Source: Pseudanabaenales cyanobacterium (GTDB taxonomy: Bacteria; Cyanobacteriota; Cyanobacteriia; Pseudanabaenales; Pseudanabaenaceae). Taken from it: 32,000 nt of DNA. Location: NCBI GenBank assembly GCA_038230875.1, contig JBBRMK010000008.1, positions 18,815-50,814 of the forward strand, given 5' to 3'. The notes beneath the pieces were generated by a model. It was not told where the DNA came from. It did no database searches and saw only the letters and a program-made list of their open reading frames with translations. The translations under genes were made by a program, and so were the position numbers. Numbering within the stretch: position 1 is the first letter of the stretch; every line of letters begins with the position of its first letter. Below are positions 15,926 through 25,136 of this stretch, in pieces.

Positions 15926-16082
15926 TTTATGATAGTTGACAATCTAAAAAAGAAACTTTAATGAAAGAAAATATTTATGATTCAGTCCCTACTTTTATTG
16001 ATCGCGTTGTCCCTGATAAGTTTGACCTATCGGTGGTTGGATTGTATTTTTAGGCGTATTGGTCATTATGTACACCCTCAAA

Positions 16083-16187
16083 TACAGCAGATTGCGAACA
16101 AAGAACGACAATATTTTCGTAAAAGCCCAGCTTTGCGGGGCTTTTACAAAAATCTGGGTTTGGTTTATTCTCAATCTGCAGTAAGAA
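16083..16187. repeat. MITE-like element, family 2, copy c (diverged)
   Basis: tacagcagattgcgaacaaag...aaaagcccagctttgcggggcttttacaaaaatctgggtttggtttattctcaatctgcagtaa aligns with 16583-16688. Confidence 0.7.
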
Positions 16188-16318
16188 GACTAATCGAGCA
16201 TTTACTCAAACGTTGTTATGTTCCATTACCAGAATGCTATGTCAGTTGGCAAAGAGAAATTAGAGCTTTTTATAACGATATCAAAGATATTTTAGAAGAT
16301 GCGCCTAGTTTAAAAACT

Positions 16319-16466
16319 GATGTTACGTGGAGCGAAAATTACCCCTCATCCCCCAACCCCTTCTCCCGCAGGAGAAGGGGAGCAAAACCCAAATTATTTT
16401 CTTGTTCCCCTCTCCTGCGGGAGAAGGGGTTGGGGGTGAGGGCTTTAGAAACTTCCACGTAACATC
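16319..16466. repeat. MITE-like element, family 1, copy b (inverted relative to copy a)
   Basis: The termini gatgttacgtgga / tccacgtaacatc are perfectly complementary. The interior acccctcatcccccaaccccttctcccgcaggagaagggg ... cccctctcctgcgggagaaggggttgggggtgagggct matches the reverse complement of 12335-12485. Confidence 0.85.
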
Positions 16467-16582: not shown

Positions 16583-16688
16583 TTACAGCAGATTGAGAAC
16601 AAACCCACCACTAGATTTTTTATAAAAGCCCCGCGAAGCGGGGCTTTTATAAAAAATCTGGGTTTGGTTTGTTCGGGATTTGCTGTAA
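16583..16688. repeat. MITE-like element, family 2, copy b
   Basis: ttacagcagattgagaacaaacccaccactagattttttataaaagccccgcgaagcggggcttttataaaaaatctgggtttggtttgttcgggatttgctgtaa is a near-perfect hairpin. Confidence 0.85.
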
Positions 16689-16810: not shown

Positions 16811-17105
16811 GGTACTTTTATTGTTAGAGATCACCTAAGGATCGCATTGTTGGTTTTGGTGAAGATTTTGTTGTGATTAAAATCAGTGTAAAAAACAACA
16901 ATATTCAAAAGAGAAAGAGTGCGGAGTATTGATTGGTTTGTCAGATTGAGTCACCTGTCTGCGTGCTTTCGTTAACGATTTACTTGAAGAGCGATCGCGA
17001 TGCTATTAGTGCATCGGAAGTCTTGGATATTTTGTCTTCTATCGCTTATGGTGAATAGGCGATCGCTAGCTTAAAAAATTACTTTCCTAGTTCGTTATTT
17101 TGTAA

Positions 17106-17227
17106 TGTTATGATCAATCTGATCCAAAGAAGTTTACGGTTGAGGCGATCGCGTAGAACAAGTTAGTGCAAGAAAAGTAAATGCTAATGGTGATGCTATT
17201 TTTAAGATCGCTCAAAGAGTTAATTAG
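17106..17227 (+). pseudogene. Internal-deletion remnant of the 153-aa tail-motif protein gene (module copy 1)
   Basis: The remnant keeps the upstream leader (taatgttatgat) and the stretch acggttgaggcgatcgc, which matches 19442-19456 of the intact gene. It then jumps to gtagaacaagttagtgcaagaaaagtaaatgctaatggtgatgctatttttaagatcgctcaaagagttaattag, which matches 19745-19819. The junction lies in a GCGATCGC site. The retained tail reads ARKVNANGDAIFKIAQRVN*. Confidence 0.7.
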
Positions 17228-17251: not shown

Positions 17252-17683
17252 ATGGAAGAGTTGTTAGAGCTTAAGGAATTGCTCATTGGCGGGAATATTT
17301 CTGATGCTTTGCTGTTGGTAGAGGAGATGACGGAGATGAGTAAGGATGACAAACTGAATAAGATTTTCAGTTTCAGTATTATCGTTCTACTGCATTTAAT
17401 TAAGCAATCTGCTGAAAAGCGATCAACGCGATCATGGGAAATGTCGATCTCTAACTCTTTAAAACAAATTCAGCGCTCCAATAAACGGCGTAAGGCAGGT
17501 GGGAACTACCTAATCGAAGCAGAGATAAGAGAAACTCTTGAGGATGCTTATGAAACTGCTTTAAATCAAGCTTCTTTGGAGGCGTTTGAAGGCAGATATG
17601 AGGTGTCGGCAATCGCGGCAATGGTCGATCACTCGGCAATTATTGACAAGGCGATCGCTCTAATTTCTAGTGGTGAAGCGTGA
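17252..17683 (+). CDS. DUF29-like helical protein, paralogue 1
   Basis: 143 aa and intact. The segment LVEEMTEMSKDDKLNKI..LLHLIKQSAEKRSTRSWEMSI..IQRSNKRR parallels the DUF29 pattern (LIEEIE.MGRSE...LL.HLLKW.....RS.SW...I...R.EI). The first 38 aa are nearly identical to paralogues 2 and 3. Confidence 0.6.
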   Translation: MEELLELKELLIGGNISDALLLVEEMTEMSKDDKLNKIFSFSIIVLLHLIKQSAEKRSTRSWEMSISNSLKQIQRSNKRRKAGGNYLIEAEIRETLEDAYETALNQASLEAFEGRYEVSAIAAMVDHSAIIDKAIALISSGEA

Positions 17684-17857
17684 GCTAGTCATAGATTACC
17701 CTATACTCGCGATGATATTAGTACATCGGAAATCTTGGATATTTTGGCTTCTATTTCTGATGATGAGTAGGCGATCACTATGTTTAGAAAATCGCTTTTC
17801 TGTTTTGTTATTTTGTAATGTTATGATTGTTTCCATTAAAGTTATAAAAATACGGCT

Positions 17858-18319
17858 ATGGCAGATCCTTTAACGGCTGAGGCGTTGGTGGTATTGGCGG
17901 CTTAGAAGTTTGTTGAGTCAAGTGCTGGAGAACTCGCTAAGAAATTTACGACTGAGGCGATCGCAAAGATTCCTGACCTATGACAGCAAATCAAAAATAA
18001 GTTACAGGGTAGATCTGCCAAGGTTGATGAGGCTTTGGTTAAGTTGGAATCGGGCGATCAAAGTGCCATTGATACAATTACCAAAAATCTCGATGTGGTG
18101 TTGGATGAAGATGAAACTTTTGCGTCACTGTTGCAAAAATTGGCTAAGGAAATTAATACAGGGAAAATTAGTCAAGTTGGTTTAAATGGTATTACTGCGA
18201 ATCGAGTAGCGGCGGAAATTGTACAAGATGCTAAGGGTGATCGCGTAGAGAAAATTGGTGCGAGGGATGTAAAAGCGACTGGCGATACGGTTTTTAAAAT
18301 CAAGCAAAATGTAGATTAG
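17858..18319 (+). pseudogene. Tail-motif small protein gene, module copy 2, with two in-frame stops
   Basis: The frame is collinear with 19358-19819 over its full length, but it has TAG at 17903-17905 and TGA at 17981-17983 (TGG in copy 3). The C-terminal tail is intact: IGARDVKATGDTVFKIKQNVD*. Confidence 0.8.
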
Positions 18320-18336: not shown

Positions 18337-18768
18337 ATGGAAGAGTTATTAGAACTTAGAGAACTGCTGATTGGTGGCAATATTTCTGATGCTTTGCTGT
18401 TGGTGGAGGAGATGACGGAAATGAGCAAGGATGACAAACTAAATAAGATCTCTAGTTTTGCGAAGATTCTCCTTCTCCATTTAATTAAGCGTCAAGCCGA
18501 AGAAAAGACAACAAGATCGTGGGATGCTTCGATTGATAATGCGGTGTATGAGATTCAGAAAACTAATCGCAGACGGAAGGCTGGAGGTGCTTATCTTTCG
18601 GCTGAAGAGTTGAGGGAGGCGGTGGCGGATGCCTATAGGGTTGCCATGTCTGGCGCGGCGGCAGAAGCTTTTGGCGGTTGCTATACGGTCACGCAACTAG
18701 CGGCAATGGTCGATCGCTCTGCAATTATTGACAAAGCGATCGCTTTAGTTTTTGGCGGAAATGCGTGA
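18337..18768 (+). CDS. DUF29-like helical protein, paralogue 2
   Basis: 143 aa and intact, with the same architecture as 17252-17683 and 19844-20275. Confidence 0.6.
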   Translation: MEELLELRELLIGGNISDALLLVEEMTEMSKDDKLNKISSFAKILLLHLIKRQAEEKTTRSWDASIDNAVYEIQKTNRRRKAGGAYLSAEELREAVADAYRVAMSGAAAEAFGGCYTVTQLAAMVDRSAIIDKAIALVFGGNA

Positions 18769-18827: not shown

Positions 18828-19317
18828 ATGATTGCAGTGGAAGTCTTAAATATTTTGGCTTCTATTGGTAGGAATGAGAGAGCAGAATATGGTTCAAGGT
18901 TGTTAACTCGATTATCACGGGATTTGAAAACAGCTTATGGTAAAGGCTTTAGTCGTCGCAATGTTTTGGACATGCGCCGCTTTTATGTTAGTTATTCAAA
19001 ATGGCAGATGGTGTCTGCCAAATTAGGTTGGTTACATTACACAGAGCTTTTAGCTATTTCAGATGATTTGGCGCGATCGTTTTATGAGCAGCAATGCATA
19101 CGCGATCGCTGGAGTGTGAGGGAATTAAAGCGTCAGAAGGATTCGGCTTTGTTTGAAAGAGTTGCCATGAGTAAGGATCGAGCTGAGATTTTAGCTTTGG
19201 CTCAGAAAAGATAGAAAATCGAGTCAATTTTTTGTGTCGAGATATCAGCTTTATTTGCCTAATGTGGAAGTTCTGAAGCAGGAGTTAAGGCGGCTTTTGG
19301 ATGAGTGCGATCGCTAA
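18828..19317 (+). pseudogene. Decayed YhcG/DUF1016-type (PD-(D/E)xK nuclease family) gene: N-terminal domain plus C-terminal tail, core deleted
   Basis: The 128-aa ORF reads RAEYGSRLLTRLSRDLKTAYGKGFSRRNVLDMRRFYVSY...WLHYTELLAISDDLARSFYEQQCIRDRWSVRELKRQ, which looks like a DUF1016 N-terminal domain. After a stop, YQLYLPNVEVLKQELRRLLDE (19243-19317) resembles the family's C-terminal end. Short 5' fragments of the same gene recur at 16999-17057 and 17711-17770. Confidence 0.55.
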
Positions 19318-19357: not shown

Positions 19358-19819
19358 GTGTCAGATCCCATAACGGCTTCAATATTGGTAGGTTTGGCTG
19401 TTCAAAAGTTTGTGGAGTCAAGCGCGGGAGAACTCGCTAAGAAATTTACGACTGAGGCGATCGCAAAGATTCCTGAGCTATGGCAACAAATCAAAAATAA
19501 GTTGCAGGGCAAATCTTCCAAGGTTGATGAGGCTTTGGTGAAGTTGGAAGCGGGCGATCGCTCTGGTATTGATACTGTGACAAAAAATCTGGATGTGGTG
19601 TTGGATGAGGATGAGGCTTTTGCGAAACTGGTGCAAAAGTTGGCGCAGGAAATCAATTCAGGGCAAATTTTACAGGTAGGTTTAGAGGGAATAACGGCGA
19701 ATCGGGTCGCGGCGGATATTGTGCAGGATGCTAAAGGCGATCGCGTAAAGCAGATTGGTGCAAGGGATGTCAATGCGACTGGTGATGCTGTTTTTAAAGT
19801 TAAACAAACCAAAGATTAG
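19358..19819 (+). CDS. Small helical protein with hydrophobic N-terminal helix and C-terminal strand-like motif (candidate Bell/HeLo-like effector); module copy 3, intact
   Basis: 153 aa with a GTG start where copy 2 has ATG. The N-terminus is SDPITASILVGLAVQKFVESSAGELAKKF, the middle is helical and acidic, and the tail is GDRVKQIGARDVNATGDAVFKVKQTKD. No enzymatic motif is present. A 136-aa antisense ORF covers it but has no support. Confidence 0.65.
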   Translation: MSDPITASILVGLAVQKFVESSAGELAKKFTTEAIAKIPELWQQIKNKLQGKSSKVDEALVKLEAGDRSGIDTVTKNLDVVLDEDEAFAKLVQKLAQEINSGQILQVGLEGITANRVAADIVQDAKGDRVKQIGARDVNATGDAVFKVKQTKD

Positions 19820-19843
19820 GCTGCAAAGCTAGAGGTCGAAGCT

Positions 19844-20275
19844 ATGGAAGAGTTATTAGAATTACGGACATTGCTGATTGGTGGCAATGTCTCCGATGCT
19901 TTGTTATTGGTGGAGGAGATGACTGAGATGAGTAAGGATGACAAGCTGAATAAAATTTATAGCTTTGCAAAAGTCTTATTACTTCATCTCATCAAACAAC
20001 AAGCGGAAAATCGCACTACAAGGTCATGGGATCTGTCAATCAAAAATGCGGTAAGGGAAATTCAGCGAACCAATCAACGACGTAAGGCTAAAGGAAATTA
20101 TTGCGAACCTTCAGAACTACGAGAGACCTTGAAAGATGCCTATGACATTGCTTTAGATTTGGCTGCTACTGAGGCGTTTGGTGGACATTATGAATCGGCG
20201 GAGTTGGGTGCGATGGTCGATCGCGATCGCATAATTCAAAAGGCGATCGCTTTAATTTCTGGAGATAATGTGTGA
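19844..20275 (+). CDS. DUF29-like helical protein, paralogue 3, translationally coupled to the NB-ARC gene
   Basis: 143 aa. Its stop TGA (20273-20275) overlaps the GTG start (20272-20274) of the next gene within GTGTGA. Confidence 0.6.
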   Translation: MEELLELRTLLIGGNVSDALLLVEEMTEMSKDDKLNKIYSFAKVLLLHLIKQQAENRTTRSWDLSIKNAVREIQRTNQRRKAKGNYCEPSELRETLKDAYDIALDLAATEAFGGHYESAELGAMVDRDRIIQKAIALISGDNV

Positions 20276-22254
20276 GCGAACAGCAAATTAATCAAACAGG
20301 ATTTAAAGATGTCTCGGTTGGTGGTAATCTCACTGCCAATCTTGATCAAAGCGTCAATAAAACGGTTATTCATCAAGCTCCAAAATCCTATCAGCCAATT
20401 CCTGATAACCTGCGGCAGGGTTCCAAAAACTTTGTGGGACGAGAGGAGGAACTTGCGGATATTCATACAAAACTGCAAGAGGGTCAGGGTGTGATCGTCT
20501 GTGCGGTGGAGGGGATGGGCGGTGTCGGTAAGACGGAACTGGCGCTGCAATATGCAAATCGCTATCAACAGGAATATGTGGCGCGGTATTGGTTGTCCTT
20601 GCGGGAGATGGGATTAGCTCAAGCATTGGTAACAATGGCTAGTCCTTATCTTGATTTACCCGAATCGATGCAGTCGGCAAGTCTAGAGGAACAAGCAGCA
20701 TGGTGTTGGCAAAACTGGTTGCCTGAGGCTGACAAGTTATTAGTGATTCTCGATGATGTGCCGAGGGCGGAGAGTATTCCTGATCTGGCGATGCCCATCG
20801 ATCCGCGTGTACGGGTATTGGTGACAACGCGAGAACGGGAATTGAATGTGGGTTTTGAGTCTGTGCCTCTGGATGTGCTGTCAGAGGAGAAGTCTCTGGA
20901 ACTGTTAAGAAAAATAGTTGGCGTGGCAAAGGTTGAGAAGGAACTCGTCACGGTTAAGGAGATTTGCAACACTTTGGGCTATTTGCCCTTGGGTATCGAG
21001 TTAATCGGTGAATATCTGAGCAAAAATCGTCATCTGACTTTTGCCAAGTTACAAGAAAAGTTACATCTTGCCGATGAGTCAATTTCACGCGATCGCAAAG
21101 GTAAGTTTTATGGCTATCGTGGTGTGGAGGCAGCAATCCAACTGAGTTGGGATGACATCAATACTGGCTCTCAGGGAGTGGCGATGTTGTTGGGGCTGTT
21201 TGCGCCTGTGGAGATTTTGTGGGAGTTGGTGGCAGCAATTGGAGCAAAAGCCAAAATTACGGAAGATGAACTGAATGAGGCAAGAGGACAGTTAGACAGT
21301 TTGCATTTGATGCAACCTGTTGATGATGAATGCAACTTTTATAAGATTCATACGGTAGTCCGCGAGTTCTTTCGTGCCAAGCTATTAAAAGCTGAAGAGA
21401 ATCATCAGTTTCGGCAAGCATTTGTGACTGGTTTACTGACAATTGCTAAAATGATACCCTCATCGCCAACGAGAGTTTTGATTGCATCGGTAGCTCCTGC
21501 TATTCCTCATTTGGATATGCTGAGTCGCGAGATGCTGGATGATATTCCTAACCCTGATGAAAATAACAATTTGGTTTGGGCATTTTTAGGAACTGCGAAA
21601 TTTTATGAAGGACAAGGACTATACGCATTAGCCGAAGATTCTTCTCAAAGATGTTTGACTTCTGTTCGAGAACTGTTAGGAGATCGCCATCCCATTGTCG
21701 CCATTAGTATCAACAACCTCGCAGCGCTGTACGATTTGCAAGGGAGATATGCAGAAGCAGAACCACTCTATCAAGAGGCGATGCAGTTGATGCGAGAACT
21801 GTTAGGAGATCGCCATCCCGATGTCGCCACCAGTCTCAACAACCTCGCAGGGTTGTACGAGTCTCAAGGGAGATATGCAGAAGCAGAACCACTGTATCAA
21901 CAAGCCCTCGCTTTGAGGCAAGAACTGTTAGGCGATCGCCATCCCGATGTCGCCATTAGTTTCAACAACCTCGCATTGCTATACCATTTGCAAGAGAGAT
22001 ATACAGAAGCCGAGCCACTCTATCAACAAGCCCTCGCTTTGAGGCAAGAACTATTAGGCAATCGCCATCCCTCTGTCGCTGGAAGTTTGTTTAATCTAGC
22101 GGGGCTTTATTACCAGATGCAAAGATATTCCGAAGCGATGATTTTGATTCAGAGAGCGATTCAGATTTATCAGCAAACCCTCGGCAACGATCATCCAAAT
22201 ACCAAAGCCGCTATGAGTTGGCTACAACCGATCAAGGAAAAAGTAGAAAGGTAA
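20272..22254 (+). CDS. STAND NTPase: short N-terminal motif + NB-ARC domain + TPR (kinesin-light-chain-type) repeats
   Basis: 660 aa. Walker A is GMGGVGKT (20512-20535), Walker B is LLVILDDV, then VLVTTRE and the GLPL-like GYLPLGIEL. The C-terminus has 5-6 TPRs of the LGDRHPDVATSLNNLAGLYESQGRYAEAEPLYQQAL type. Only ~55 aa precede the NTPase domain. Confidence 0.85.
   Translation: MSEQQINQTGFKDVSVGGNLTANLDQSVNKTVIHQAPKSYQPIPDNLRQGSKNFVGREEELADIHTKLQEGQGVIVCAVEGMGGVGKTELALQYANRYQQEYVARYWLSLREMGLAQALVTMASPYLDLPESMQSASLEEQAAWCWQNWLPEADKLLVILDDVPRAESIPDLAMPIDPRVRVLVTTRERELNVGFESVPLDVLSEEKSLELLRKIVGVAKVEKELVTVKEICNTLGYLPLGIELIGEYLSKNRHLTFAKLQEKLHLADESISRDRKGKFYGYRGVEAAIQLSWDDINTGSQGVAMLLGLFAPVEILWELVAAIGAKAKITEDELNEARGQLDSLHLMQPVDDECNFYKIHTVVREFFRAKLLKAEENHQFRQAFVTGLLTIAKMIPSSPTRVLIASVAPAIPHLDMLSREMLDDIPNPDENNNLVWAFLGTAKFYEGQGLYALAEDSSQRCLTSVRELLGDRHPIVAISINNLAALYDLQGRYAEAEPLYQEAMQLMRELLGDRHPDVATSLNNLAGLYESQGRYAEAEPLYQQALALRQELLGDRHPDVAISFNNLALLYHLQERYTEAEPLYQQALALRQELLGNRHPSVAGSLFNLAGLYYQMQRYSEAMILIQRAIQIYQQTLGNDHPNTKAAMSWLQPIKEKVER
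21670..22173 (+). repeat. Four tandem 126-bp (42-aa) TPR-coding units with high nucleotide identity
   Basis: Unit starts (gaactgttagg/gaactattagg) are at 21670, 21796, 21922 and 22048. Long identical runs such as gatcgccatcccgatgtcgcc and agatatgcagaagcagaaccact are shared between units. Confidence 0.9.
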
Positions 22255-22267
22255 AAGTTAAAAGGAA

Positions 22268-22681
22268 ATGGCAAAAGATTTATTTCATGATGCAGTCAAA
22301 AATGCCCTAATCAAAGATGGTTGGCAGATTACTGATGACCCATTCTTCTTGAAAGTTGGAGGTGTTGAACTTTATATCGATCTAGGAGCCGAAAAACTCA
22401 TTGCCGCCGAACGCAATAATGAAAAAATCGCCGTAGAGATCAAAAGTTTTATCAATCCTTCATCGCTAACGGACTTTCATCTAGCGATCGGACAATTTCT
22501 TAACTATCGAGTAGCATTAAAAGCAAGAGAGCCAGAACGCAAACTATTTTTAGCAGTTCCAAATACTGCCTACGCCAGCTTTTTCCAAAAAGAGTTTGCC
22601 TATATGGTTATTGCTGAATATCAATTGGAAATTTTTGTTTACGATATCGAAAATGAGGTAATTGTCACATGGAAAATCTAG
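22268..22681 (+). CDS. xisH: XisH family protein (fdxN-element excision controlling factor-like)
   Basis: MAKDLFHDAVKNALIKDGWQITDDP...IAAERNNEKIAVEIKSF closely follows the Anabaena XisH pattern. It starts 13 nt after the NB-ARC gene stop. Confidence 0.85.
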   Translation: MAKDLFHDAVKNALIKDGWQITDDPFFLKVGGVELYIDLGAEKLIAAERNNEKIAVEIKSFINPSSLTDFHLAIGQFLNYRVALKAREPERKLFLAVPNTAYASFFQKEFAYMVIAEYQLEIFVYDIENEVIVTWKI

Positions 22682-23013
22682 AAAAAATTGCTAAATATCG
22701 CACCATCATCAAAGAGATTTTGGGACACTATGCCTCCTATAAACCCTCTCATGGCGAGATCGAGATCCAGTTTCTATCGGATACAGAACATGATCACTAT
22801 CAAGTATTAGGTGTGGGATGGGATCAAAAAACACGAGTTTACGGTTGTTCCATGCACTTAGATATTAAAAATGGCAAAATTTGGATTCAAATCAACAATA
22901 CCGAACTTGATATTGGTCAAGCCTTAGTCGAAAAGGGTGTGCCAAAAGAAGATATTGTCATCGGTTTTCAGCCCGTTTATATTCGCCAAGTTTCAGGCTA
23001 TGCGATCGCCTAA
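22669..23013 (+). CDS. xisI: XisI family protein, copy 1
   Basis: 114 aa with YGCSMHLDIKNGKIWIQINNTELDIGQALVEKGVPKEDIVIGF. It overlaps xisH by 13 nt. Confidence 0.85.
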   Translation: MENLEKIAKYRTIIKEILGHYASYKPSHGEIEIQFLSDTEHDHYQVLGVGWDQKTRVYGCSMHLDIKNGKIWIQINNTELDIGQALVEKGVPKEDIVIGFQPVYIRQVSGYAIA

Positions 23014-23026
23014 CCACCGCAAAAAT

Positions 23027-23049
23027 ACATCCGTAATTTTTAAAGCAGC
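23027..23049 (+). repeat. Intercassette motif A, copy 1
   Basis: acatccgtaatttttaaagcagc. Related copies start at 23885, 24248 and 25150. Confidence 0.7.
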
Positions 23050-23131
23050 TAAACTCGTGAGTGTATTTGGGCTTAGACCGCTAAAGTATGCCTTGACCAC
23101 AAGTAACATATAAGTTACTATAGTACTTAGT

Positions 23132-23515
23132 ATGAAAGTTCAAGAATACATCCAAGAAGACGGCTCAAGCCCCTATCAGAAATGGTTCGATAATCTAGAT
23201 GCGATCGCGGCGGCAAAAGTGTCCGTTGCCAAATCGCGTCTAGAGCTAGGTAACACATCAAATATCAAATGGTTTGATGGAATTGGCGAATATCGAATTG
23301 ATTGGGGTGCAGGATACCGAATTTATCTAGCCCAAGATGGCGATCAACTCATCGTTCTATTTGGTGGAGGCACGAAAAAAAGTCAACAATCCGATATTGA
23401 ACGCGCTAAAGAACTGCATCAAGATTATAAAAGACGTAAAAAAGAAGCTAGGCAAGCTGCCATCAAGAAAGAAACCAACAAAGAAATTGACAAAAAGAAG
23501 AAAAAGAAAAAATGA
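23132..23515 (+). CDS. RelE/ParE-superfamily addiction-module killer protein (HigB-like) with lysine-rich tail
   Basis: [81 protein letters not shown] matches the killer-protein family pattern. The K-rich C-terminus (KKKKKKK) is unusual. Confidence 0.75.
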
Positions 23516-23844
23516 CAACTACACCCCTAACACGCGACTTTAAAGAAACAGTTAATGCAAGAGTCCAGAGAGATTCTGCATTTGCCACTGCTTTACTGGA
23601 TGAAGCTATTTCCCTCTTCCTCAATGGCGAACCAGAAACCGCGAGACTCATATTGAGAGATCTAGTCAATGCCACTATCGGGTTTGAAGAACTAGCGATC
23701 GCCACCTCAAAACCCAGCAAAAGCCTTCATAGGATGCTATCGGCAAAAGGAAATCCTACAATGGATAATCTCACCGCTATTCTTCAAGTTTTGCGTAAAA
23801 ACCTTCAAGTTAGTATTAAAGTACAGACATTTACTTGCGCTTAA
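23512..23844 (+). CDS. HTH addiction-module antidote protein (HigA-like)
   Basis: It has a 4-nt ATGA overlap with the upstream toxin. [71 protein letters not shown] fits the antidote family. Confidence 0.7.
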
Positions 23845-23884
23845 AATATCTACTACAGATATCTTAGAATGATAGATCTTACGC

Positions 23885-23907
23885 ACATCCATAACTTTTA
23901 GAGCAGC
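23885..23907 (+). repeat. Intercassette motif A, copy 2
   Basis: acatccataacttttagagcagc, preceded by cttacgc as in copy 3. Confidence 0.6.
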
Positions 23908-23970
23908 TATGCGATCGCAGGTTTAGATGCTACTACATTAACATTGACCAACAAAATAAAGGGAACAGTC

Positions 23971-24198
23971 ATGAATCGCAACTACAGCATTTCTATCCAA
24001 TGGTCAGAAGAAGACAGCAAATTTATCGCCCATTTACCCGAATTTGGTCCCTACGCCCATACTCACGGCGACACTTACACTAACGCTCTAGAAAATGCCC
24101 TAGAAGTTTTAGAATTACTAATCGAAGATTACACTGCACGTCACAAACCCTTACCAACACCACGCATAATCAAAAAATCCGACTTCATCGCCGCTTGA
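23971..24198 (+). CDS. HicB-family antitoxin-like protein (no hicA partner visible)
   Basis: MNRNYSISIQWSEEDSKFIAHLPEFGPYAHTHGDTYTNALENALEVLELLIEDY. The ATG at 23971 follows aagggaac, and the listed upstream start is TTG. Confidence 0.65.
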   Translation: MNRNYSISIQWSEEDSKFIAHLPEFGPYAHTHGDTYTNALENALEVLELLIEDYTARHKPLPTPRIIKKSDFIAA

Positions 24199-24247
24199 TT
24201 AGGAGAAAATCATAGAATTTGTTCTTTGTATTCGCGTAGATTTTACG

Positions 24248-24270
24248 CACATCCGTAATTTTTAAATTAA
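24248..24270 (+). repeat. Intercassette motif A, copy 3
   Basis: acatccgtaatttttaaattaac, with ttacg / cgtaa forming a 5-bp inverted pair around cacatc. Confidence 0.6.
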
Positions 24271-24301
24271 CTTAGCCTCCCATTCATCAATTAACCTGAC
24301 T

Positions 24302-24511
24302 ATGACCATCAAAGAACAACTCATTCAAGAAGTAGAAACATTTCCTGATGCACTCCTAGCCGAAGCCCTCGACTTTGTGCTATTTCTCAAAACCCGTTAT
24401 ATCGATACCGAAATCACCACCGAAGAACAAGACACGATCCTCGCATCTCAATCCGCCTATGAGCTAGGAGACTACCTCACCCTCGAACAATACGCATCAA
24501 GTCAGGCATGA
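24302..24511 (+). CDS. Putative antitoxin of the RelE-type toxin
   Basis: 69 aa and acidic. It has a 4-nt overlap (ATGA) with the downstream toxin, and a DUF2281-like N-terminus (IQEVETFPDALLAEALDFVLFLKTRY). Confidence 0.55.
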   Translation: MTIKEQLIQEVETFPDALLAEALDFVLFLKTRYIDTEITTEEQDTILASQSAYELGDYLTLEQYASSQA

Positions 24512-24762
24512 GCTATCAAATTATTATCCCCAAACCAGTTCAAAAGCAACTAGATAGCTTGCCGAAAACTCAACGCGATCGAGCAATTATGGCAATGCGA
24601 TCGCTTACTAACGAGCCACGACCAACTGGAGTCAAAAAGCTCAAAGGCTACGATGAAACTTATCGGATTAGATTTGGCGATTATCGCGTCATTTACAAAG
24701 TTCAAGACAAAGAGCTAATCATTCTGTTACTGAGTGTTAGCCACCGCAAAGATGCTTACTAA
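24508..24762 (+). CDS. RelE/StbE-family toxin
   Basis: 84 aa with IPKPVQKQLDSLPK, PRPTGVKKLKGYDETYRIRFGDYRVIYKVQDKELIILLLSVSHRKDAY. Confidence 0.8.
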   Translation: MSYQIIIPKPVQKQLDSLPKTQRDRAIMAMRSLTNEPRPTGVKKLKGYDETYRIRFGDYRVIYKVQDKELIILLLSVSHRKDAY

Positions 24763-24791
24763 TCACAAAAGAGATATGAGGTGATTGTCAC

Positions 24792-25136
24792 ATGGAAAAT
24801 CTAGAAAAAATCGCCAAATATCGCACCATCATCAAAGAGATTTTGGGACACTATGCCTCCTACAAACCATCTCATGGCGAGATCGAGATCCAGTTTCTAT
24901 CAGATACAGAACACGATCACTATCAAGTATTAGGCGTGGGATGGGATCAAAAAACACGAGTTTACGGTTGTTCCATGCACTTAGATATTAAAAATGGCAA
25001 AATTTGGATTCAAATCAACAATACCGAACTTGATATTGGTCAAGCCTTAGTCGAAAAAGGTGTACCAAAAGAAGATATTGTCATCGGTTTTCAGCCCGTT
25101 TATATTCGCCAAGTTTCTGGCTATGCGATCGCCTAA
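24792..25136 (+). CDS. xisI: XisI family protein, copy 2 (protein identical to copy 1)
   Basis: The 114-aa translation is identical to copy 1. There are 10 nucleotide differences, all synonymous third-position changes. Confidence 0.85.
   Translation: MENLEKIAKYRTIIKEILGHYASYKPSHGEIEIQFLSDTEHDHYQVLGVGWDQKTRVYGCSMHLDIKNGKIWIQINNTELDIGQALVEKGVPKEDIVIGFQPVYIRQVSGYAIA

Follow-up and report, generated by a model that had tools for sequence, protein, structure and literature searches.

A probable Bell/BASS effector and NLR-like sensor pair with a divergent BASS4-like motif in a Pseudanabaenales cyanobacterium

A Bell effector and an NLR-like sensor share a terminal motif

We analyzed a stretch of 32,000 nucleotides (nt) from the Pseudanabaenales cyanobacterium assembly GCA_038230875.1 (contig JBBRMK010000008.1, positions 18,815 to 50,814 of the forward strand), hereafter the window, in which position 1 is the first letter. 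It carries a gene for a small putative effector of 153 residues and, 452 nt downstream on the same strand, a gene for a 660-residue sensor-like protein of the NLR (NOD-like receptor) kind; the C-terminal tail of the first protein resembles the N-terminus of the second. The locus is probably a two-component Bell/BASS-NLR module of the kind that Dyrka et al. described (2020, bioRxiv 10.1101/2020.01.06.895854; BASS, bacterial amyloid signalling sequence), and its motif a divergent relative of BASS4. An amyloid-signalling pair had been proposed in an original prediction made from this DNA, and the sequence comparisons support it on four counts: the effector belongs to the Bell kind, the motif is suitably placed on both proteins, the pairing is kept in other genomes, and the motif types of the two partners co-vary.

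The effector gene (19358..19819, + strand, GTG start) encodes a Bell domain followed by a C-terminal signalling tail with two repeats. NCBI holds a protein identical to it (P0001), and its closest homologues come from Pseudanabaena. The Bell domain covers approximately residues 1-102 (19358..19663, + strand), with an N-terminal MSDP and a hydrophobic helix followed by a helical bundle. Judged by sequence, the domain is a Bell domain by membership of the Bell set of Dyrka and co-authors themselves, because over its first 104 residues it shares about 80% identity with OYQ62169.1, encoded at locus L011 (Pseudanabaena sp. SR411), which Table S2 of Dyrka et al. (2020) lists as a Bell/BASS9 effector paired with the NLR OYQ62143.1. 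The effector N-terminus reads MSDPITASILVGLAV, with an acidic residue at position 3 and a hydrophobic helix after it, and so fits the signature given in the literature for Bell, HeLo and MLKL domains, namely an acidic residue at position 2-3 with a hydrophobic helix next. Library scans assigned the effector to no Pfam, NCBIfam or PADLOC family, giving sub-threshold noise only, and Pfam has no model for the Bell domain; a search of PDB sequences with a Bell alignment profile found nothing. In an AlphaFold2 model of the effector (16-sequence alignment, predicted local distance difference test [pLDDT] 64.6) helices were placed at residues 7-20, 26-29, 32-49, 54-64, 68-84 and 86-100. A weak Foldseek match to NRG1 CC-R, at rank 13, does not count as evidence.

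The NLR-like gene (20272..22254, + strand, GTG start) encodes, in this order and on the same strand, the N-terminal motif QTGFKDVSVGGNLTANLDQ (residues 8-26, 20293..20349), an NB-ARC domain (residues 58-294, 20443..21153; Pfam NB-ARC, E 3e-19) and TPR repeats (approximately residues 431-650, 21562..22221; Pfam TPR_12, E 5e-77). The published pairs combine an effector with an NB-ARC or NACHT partner that has TPR or WD repeats, at most 5 kb away and mostly collinear (Dyrka et al. 2020); the partner in the window is an NB-ARC/TPR protein, collinear with the effector and less than 5 kb from it.

Based on translation of both genes, effector residues 132-150 (QIGARDVNATGDAVFKVKQ, nt 19751-19807) and NLR residues 8-26 (nt 20293-20349) lie where the original prediction had placed them, and the 6 identities in 19 positions that it had counted are there (BLOSUM62 sum 28). 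The pattern shared by the effector tail and the NLR N-terminus is Q-x-G-h-x-x-V-x-h-(x)-G-[DN]-h-x-h-x-h-x-Q. Its location, C-terminal on the effector and N-terminal on the NB-ARC/TPR protein, is also as had been claimed. However, the tail does not carry a single copy of the motif, as first thought, and consists of two pseudo-repeats: R1 (residues 106-123, QVGLEGITANRVAADIVQ, 19673..19726, + strand), which had been missed and is conserved in 40 distinct homologues, and R2 (residues 132-150, 19751..19807, + strand), the stretch described originally. They are separated by a linker, DAKGDRVK (residues 124-131, 19727..19750, + strand), of 8-11 residues in homologues. R1 is at least as similar to the NLR motif as R2 is.

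The original prediction would have failed had the similarity been no better than for shuffled sequences. The best ungapped local score of the window pair was 33 against 17.6-20.3 +/- 3.6-3.9 in shuffles (p 0.002-0.008), and the pair ranked 12 of 674 when compared with the first 60 residues of 674 unrelated open reading frames (ORFs). Taken alone, the window pair is similar at a level only modestly above chance. The cognate partners of other pairs ranked 1, 4, 5, 7 and 27 of 674. With a hidden Markov model (HMM) built from 11 NLR N-termini, R1 sequences of effectors were the best non-self matches (E 0.0047 and 0.16), the noise beginning at E 3. In profile-profile alignments with hhalign, R1 matched the NLR motif at P=2.7e-7, using all 18 columns and a single gap in the turn, and R2 matched it at P=1.8e-6 over all 19 columns; these values are somewhat flattered by the anchoring of the motif alignments on Q..G...Q by eye or regular expression. 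Across loci, these comparisons make a convincing case for a relation between the effector and NLR motifs beyond chance.

Tail and N-terminus types switch together in related loci

One genome per species was scanned for homologues, which yielded 65 related loci. In most of those where both genes were readable, a Bell gene is followed by a same-strand NB-ARC/TPR gene. The Bell homologues share a domain of about 105 residues joined to at least three unrelated kinds of tail: the kind found in the window (type A), BASS9 and others. Across the family the type of the NLR N-terminus switches with that of the tail, which is the co-variation that the original prediction had asked for. BASS9 tails (NAKGWQTKVEGGTAYIG) pair with BASS9 NLR N-termini, and the NLR partners of type-A tails have the N-terminal pattern Q-T-G-h-x-x-[VS]-x-h-G-[GDN]-x-h-x-h-x-h-x-Q. 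Other genomes likewise retain the motif: type-A pairs turned up about 12 times, in Pseudanabaena, Crocosphaera, Woronichinia, a metagenome-assembled genome of Merismopediaceae and unassigned metagenome contigs. The motif keeps the same position in these pairs (NLR residues ~6-27), which span several cyanobacterial orders. Examples of the type-A NLR motif are QTGMQGVSAGGNINASIDQ (L008), QIGMQRVTAETITANIDQ (L009), QTGIENSIIGDNAQINVEQ (L013, Crocosphaera), QTGIQNAQFGDHAQIEINQ (L017, Merismopediaceae), QTAFQNVTLGNNAQIEINQ (L067, Woronichinia) and QTGIKDSTFGDHARIEINQ (L068). NLR bodies that are nearly identical (NB-ARC 87-88% identical to that of the window) were found joined to type A (L004), to BASS9 (L011) or to no N-terminus of their own (L021), and therefore the front end is exchanged quickly.

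At L002 (L002:6001-9515) an effector and a DUF29 protein of the window type (81-89% identity) stand with an NLR that belongs to another NB-ARC clade (31% identity) and has an N-terminal motif of the second type-A subtype; this pair scores at background, which suggests that the partners were recombined recently. At L071 (6162-6460) and L073 (4625-4925) the NLR N-termini carry a motif of type-A/BASS4-like kind (QTALENVTAGGDVNANISQ and QTGLEHVNVGGDADINVSQ) and then a BASS5 motif (EPNKIADKIGVV...), and the adjoining Bell protein has a BASS5 tail only. A sensor with two motifs might address two effectors. Finally, at L070 (5349-5669) the ORF of 106 residues after a type-A Bell gene begins with an NLR-type motif (QTGLDNSQVVGNVSIDQ) and lacks an NB-ARC domain, and the next ORF holds TPR only; these may be the parts of a broken or split NLR.

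Relation of the type-A motif to BASS4: a probable divergent BASS4-like family

When 12 type-A substrings were searched in the published pair table (Dyrka et al. 2020), only unrelated actinobacterial matches were obtained, and therefore these pairs are not in the 2020 catalogue. The Bell/BASS class itself has been known since that year; what is newly added is the type-A pairs. An HMM for BASS4, derived from no sequences other than the 14 BASS4 instances of Table S2, was searched against 1872 ORFs. The NLR N-termini of L004 and of the window came first and second, nearly tied (E 3e-4, and 3.2e-4 for the window), and with a BASS4 model from the NLR side only, the window N-terminus was the best match. 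The effector repeats matched the BASS4 HMM weakly (E 0.13-49), in register. In hhalign comparisons with BASS4 the P values were 6e-5 to 1e-4 for the NLR motif, 0.0023 for R2 and 0.012 for R1. On these sequence matches we filed type A as a divergent BASS4-like family within the known BASS class.

The likeness to BASS4 pairs extends to their architecture, in which the motif stands at the C-terminus of a Bell effector and at the N-terminus of its NB-ARC/TPR partner, and to a core h-x-[DN]-V-x-V-G-G-N-L-T with flanking Q residues, as in the Cuspidothrix NLR QPQINQSILNNVNVGGNLTTGDI. Bell proteins often carry BASS4 in repeated form, as HET-s does with its motif (PMC8086366), and R1 and R2 were likewise found in 40 of 40 distinct type-A tails. 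The one-residue turn deletion of some BASS4 effectors also falls at the same place in R1. In contrast to BASS4, the Gly at position 3 is fixed in type A (Q-x-G) and the stretch behind the GGN turn is shorter by one residue; the type-A effector repeats are charge-rich and weakly matched by the BASS4 profile. The BASS9 pair of Pseudanabaena sp. SR411 (OYQ62169.1/OYQ62143.1) belongs to the same Bell clade, at about 80% identity, with an NB-ARC domain 88% identical to that of the window. Yet its motif is unrelated (NAKGWQTKVEGGTAYI) and is carried by the NLR after some 50 extra residues, and the BASS9 genes are adjacent (29-42 nt) whereas those of the window are separated. BASS6 looked similar at first (ATGFRSVAVGGDVGVAITGD) and seems the less likely motif class, BASS4 fitting better and being cyanobacterial.

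Two effector repeats with complementary charges

The consensus of R1 is Q-[VI]-G-L-x-x-[IV]-x-A-x-[RE]-h-x-A-[DE]-[IV]-x-Q. When R1 and R2 are aligned parallel and in register, 132 sequence-by-column cells pair complementary charges and none pairs like charges, in related sequences whose cells are not independent events. Shifted registers gave 7-41 complementary and 2-19 like-charge cells, and the best antiparallel register 81 and 17. The charge pairs are sign-swapped at columns 5:5, 8:8, 11:12 and 17:18 and are inverted in separate lineages; for example, R1:R2 column 5:5 is D/E-R in some sequences and K-E or R-E in others, column 8:8 is E-K or K-E, and column 11:12 is R-D or E-K. In the AlphaFold2 model the tail is predicted, at low confidence, to form strands at residues 104-110, 117-125, 130-136 and 144-152, that is, a strand-turn-strand unit for each repeat.

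This charge pattern is as would be expected for a two-rung beta-solenoid of the HET-s kind. In the HET-S/NWD2 system of Podospora anserina the motif is HRAM, and HET-s(218-289) forms a beta-solenoid. Like that system, the window pair has two effector pseudo-repeats with a flexible linker, one copy on the NLR, complementary charges between the putative rungs, and a helical, putatively membrane-targeting effector domain with a hydrophobic first helix. They differ in repeat length (18-19 residues in the window and 21 in HET-s), in the linker of 8-11 residues, in the effector domain, which is Bell and not HeLo, and in the bacterial host; no similarity to HRAM is evident by eye. By analogy, the charge pairing says that the tail would work like HET-s; membership in the HRAM family is not thereby established.

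A different arrangement of the same parts is non-amyloid docking, in which the tail would form a small beta unit and pair one-to-one with the NLR N-terminus, for instance by strand addition, without templated polymerization. The tail is unusually charged for a BASS motif, the R1/R2 charge pairing would stabilize a small soluble beta-sheet too, and effector-derived profiles miss the NLR motif, so the two sides are not near-identical, unlike in many BASS pairs. However, the complementarity is best in the parallel in-register arrangement (132/0) and reaches at best 81/17 in an antiparallel hairpin, the Bell domain elsewhere carries BASS9, from the published catalogue of bacterial amyloid signalling, at the same position, and the motif resembles BASS4. 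We regard docking as unlikely.

Observations against the amyloid-signalling reading

Several results weigh against an amyloid-signalling pair. In the window pair alone, 6 identities in 19 positions are a weak similarity, and the L002 pair ranked 203 of 674, not above background. Co-variation inside type A is loose, because L002 combines a window-type effector with the other NLR subtype. HMMs built from R1 only or R2 only of the effectors retrieved no NLR N-terminus, probably a result of too narrow a training set. The strict criterion of the published screen is that a single effector-derived profile must match the NLR (Dyrka et al. 2020), and an alternative published criterion is a conserved local alignment of at least 15 residues between the effector C-terminus and the NLR N-terminus; here the one-profile search fails with the effector-derived HMM, and the shared motif is seen at the profile-profile level. 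BASS motifs were reported as rich in G, N, Q, V and I and poor in K, P and L (Dyrka et al. 2020), a composition that the NLR side fits, whereas K, D, E and R abound in the effector repeats. The tail of the AlphaFold2 model has a pLDDT of about 47-54, and Foldseek comparison of this medium-confidence model with PDB gave nothing significant (best E 0.63). Furthermore, effector and NLR are separated by a DUF29 gene that had not been noticed originally; 57% of the published pairs lie within 10 bp (Dyrka et al. 2020).

The low identity, the single-pair rank of 12 of 674 and the absence of an above-background match at L002 would also suit an origin of the similarity in chance or composition, or as a recombination relic of the effector 3' end and the NLR 5' end, with no signalling role. 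Yet the motif has the same position in about 12 pairs from several cyanobacterial orders, the profile-level P values are 1e-6 to 1e-7, a BASS4 profile derived independently from the literature finds the motif, and tail and N-terminus types switch together across the family. Such an origin is thus very improbable, and appears already largely refuted by the NLR-motif HMM, the BASS4 HMM and hhalign.

Proposed mechanism

For the preferred Bell/BASS-NLR module, we take HET-S/NWD2, BASS1/BASS3 and Bab/Agp as analogues and infer from them the trigger, the formation and templating of amyloid, the attack on the membrane and the biological role. The NB-ARC/TPR protein would be the sensor: its TPR repeats would detect a trigger and its NB-ARC domain would then oligomerize, gathering several of the 19-residue N-terminal motifs (NLR residues 8-26) into a cross-beta fold. 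This fold could template the effector tail, whose R1 (106-123) and R2 (132-150) would stack in register as a two-rung beta-solenoid with complementary charges, as in HET-s. Conversion of the tail would free the Bell domain, and its hydrophobic first helix would attack the membrane and kill the cell. The likely role would be abortive infection or regulated cell death. Abortive infection and phage defence have been demonstrated by experiment for Bab/Agp (BASS11) in E. coli (bioRxiv 10.1101/2024.11.07.622273). There, too, a neighbouring sensor with an amyloid motif at its N-terminus activates a small, helical effector that is related to Bell and has the same motif at its C-terminus; the system differs in that its motif comes from another family and forms a single repeat.

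A mosaic tandem array upstream of the pair

The intact pair stands at the end of an array whose order is tail relic, DUF29, Bell pseudogene, DUF29, DUF1016 fragment, Bell, DUF29 and NLR, with all the array features listed here as genes or copies on the + strand. As the original prediction had stated, two decayed effector copies with the tail exist upstream, although its coordinates for them were 1 nt early. Copy 2 (17858..18319) is full length without frameshift and is interrupted by two stop codons (17903-17905, TAG; 17981-17983, TGA). It retains the tail EKIGARDVKATGDTVFKIKQ, with IGARD... at 18254-18307 and the first position of R2 changed from Q to K. Copy 1 (17144..17227) is a remnant of the last 27 codons only, reading GDRVEQVSARKVNANGDAIFKIAQRVN* with ARKV... 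at 17168-17215, and comprises the end of the linker and R2, with G3 changed to S. Between copy 2 and the intact effector the synonymous divergence (dS) is 0.58 and the ratio of nonsynonymous to synonymous divergence (dN/dS) is 0.22.

In the window three DUF29 genes of 143 residues are intact, as judged by ORF and Pfam: copy 1 (17252..17683), copy 2 (18337..18768) and the one between effector and NLR (19844..20275, + strand; Pfam PF01724, E 2.7e-8). These paralogues are 66-72% identical, with dS of 1.6-2.8 and dN/dS of 0.09-0.16, which indicates purifying selection. With a dS far above that of the Bell copies, the DUF29 copies are old and the two Bell copies younger, so the array must be mosaic and did not arise by a simple recent duplication. 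A DUF1016_N fragment of 128 residues (18828..19214, + strand) lies between units 2 and 3, and shorter DUF1016_N remnants precede units 1 and 2 (16995-17078 and 17707-17790). Just upstream there is a fourth DUF29-like ORF of 161 residues (15977-16462). A near-perfect palindrome with a 20-bp stem (AGATTTTTTATAAAAGCCCCGCGAAGCGGGGCTTTTATAAAAAATCT) is located at 16613-16659, upstream of the array; it is terminator-like, without a clean T-run.

On the 3' side of the NLR gene (22268-25136) there are small genes of mobile or addiction type, encoding XisH, XisI and a ParE-family toxin with a DUF2281-type partner. The XisI gene of 114 residues is present twice, in identical copies (22669-23013 and 24792-25136). 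HIP1 sites (GCGATCGC) are abundant in the window DNA and, together with the closest homologues, point to a Pseudanabaena-like cyanobacterium. A promoter and terminator scan was uninformative, giving fewer sites than in shuffles.

The DUF29 gene between the partners

The DUF29 gene of the window starts 24 nt after the effector stop, and its own stop overlaps the NLR start by 4 nt (GTGA). DUF29 also fills the gap between Bell and NLR in L001-L008, in L001 and L006 together with HicA/HicB (L001:6905-7398). In other loci the same place is occupied by HicB/HicA (L009:6503-6986), MNT/HEPN (L013:6477-7116) or RelB/ParE (L066:5001-5467; L068:4998-5464), and at L053, where the Bell match is fragmentary, by DUF29 and a HicB-like ORF. 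Type-A partners are direct neighbours at L017 (32-nt gap) and L067 (5-nt gap). A search of PDB sequences with the DUF29 protein found nothing.

These arrangements raise the question of a three-part module, in which the DUF29 protein would take an active part, for example as a brake that keeps the tail or the NLR N-terminus from converting spontaneously, or as a regulator. Its recurrence between effector and NLR in L001-L008, with translational coupling to the NLR through the 4-nt overlap, would agree with such a function, as would the preservation of 3 of 3 DUF29 copies in the window (dN/dS 0.09-0.16) while 2 of 3 effector copies decayed. In addition, 3 of 4 sampled close DUF29 homologues on long contigs (L071, L073 and L074) lie directly upstream of a Bell gene and NLR. 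On the other hand, the type-A pairs at L017 and L067 exist without DUF29, and the unrelated toxin-antitoxin pairs that fill its slot at L009, L013, L066 and L068 suggest a landing site for selfish cassettes. DUF29 is also far commoner, with 2606 homologues against 196 for the effector, stands at L076 as three tandem copies without an NLR, and had no function that a whole-word literature search could turn up. A working role of the DUF29 protein is doubtful in our estimation.

Sister loci in which a single stop codon separates effector and sensor

In 18 sister loci (L015, L019-L021, L023, L024, L027-L030, L032, L040, L041, L046, L050-L052 and L074) the Bell-BASS ORF and the NB-ARC/TPR ORF lie in one frame, split by a single stop codon; examples are L028:6430-6502, L020:6442-6517 and L023:3252-3324. 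Some of these loci have an NB-ARC domain up to 87% identical to that of the window; Pseudanabaena minima Chao 2107 and Acaryochloris pREB4 are among the sources of single-stop loci. Sixteen of the stops are TGA, most of them TGA-C, and two are TAG, and the frame remains open for 470-1006 codons past the stop, or to the end of the locus (135 codons, in the truncated L029). The first ATG, GTG or TTG after the stop is found at codons 21-133; in 16 of 18 loci it does not precede the conserved FVGR segment, and in several it comes after the P-loop. The NLRs of these loci have no N-terminal motif of their own.

A conserved RNA element appears to follow the stop. RNAalifold placed a 5-bp hairpin 8 nt after it, paired in 69 of 70 cells and with compensatory changes at two pairs. 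The hairpin loop can pair with downstream bases, the sequences varying by locus (AGGAG/CTCCT, GGGG/CCCC, CGGC/GCCG, AGGATC/GATCCT), with a mean loop-downstream helix length of 4.57 against 3.57 in shuffles, a value reached by 0 of 2000 shuffles. The hairpin and its loop pairing are therefore a candidate H-type pseudoknot, as modelled from the alignment. A covariance model of 14 sequences matched only at Bell stop codons, including those of L074, L024 and L029, which had not been used to build it, and gave no match in the window. Rfam scans of three single-stop loci gave no match, and the element was not mentioned in the literature searched.

The simplest reading of this arrangement is programmed read-through, which would yield free effector together with an effector-motif-NLR fusion. 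The main alternative is non-canonical initiation of the NLR. Selenocysteine insertion at the in-frame TGA is unlikely, since two loci use TAG. We suggest tentatively, as a possibility somewhat short of an even chance, that the family holds an undescribed coupling of effector and sensor, with DUF29 as a third component in the window clade and stop read-through in the 18 sister loci.

Significance

If true, read-through would produce, from one gene, a rarer effector-motif-NLR fusion bearing the identical amyloid motif, and the variant would then provide a cellular bacterial immune gene with programmed stop-codon recoding, a rare case. The partners of a pair need not adjoin, and screens limited to adjacent genes, or to one profile common to both partners, miss pairs such as the one in the window. 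The near-identical NLR bodies with type A, BASS9 or no N-terminus of their own offer a natural comparison set for the speed of motif exchange. The charge pairs that co-vary between R1 and R2 predict a HET-s-like two-rung solenoid in a bacterium, and the type-A pairs would enlarge the catalogue of NLR-associated amyloid signalling motifs in bacteria by a divergent, well-supported BASS4-like family.

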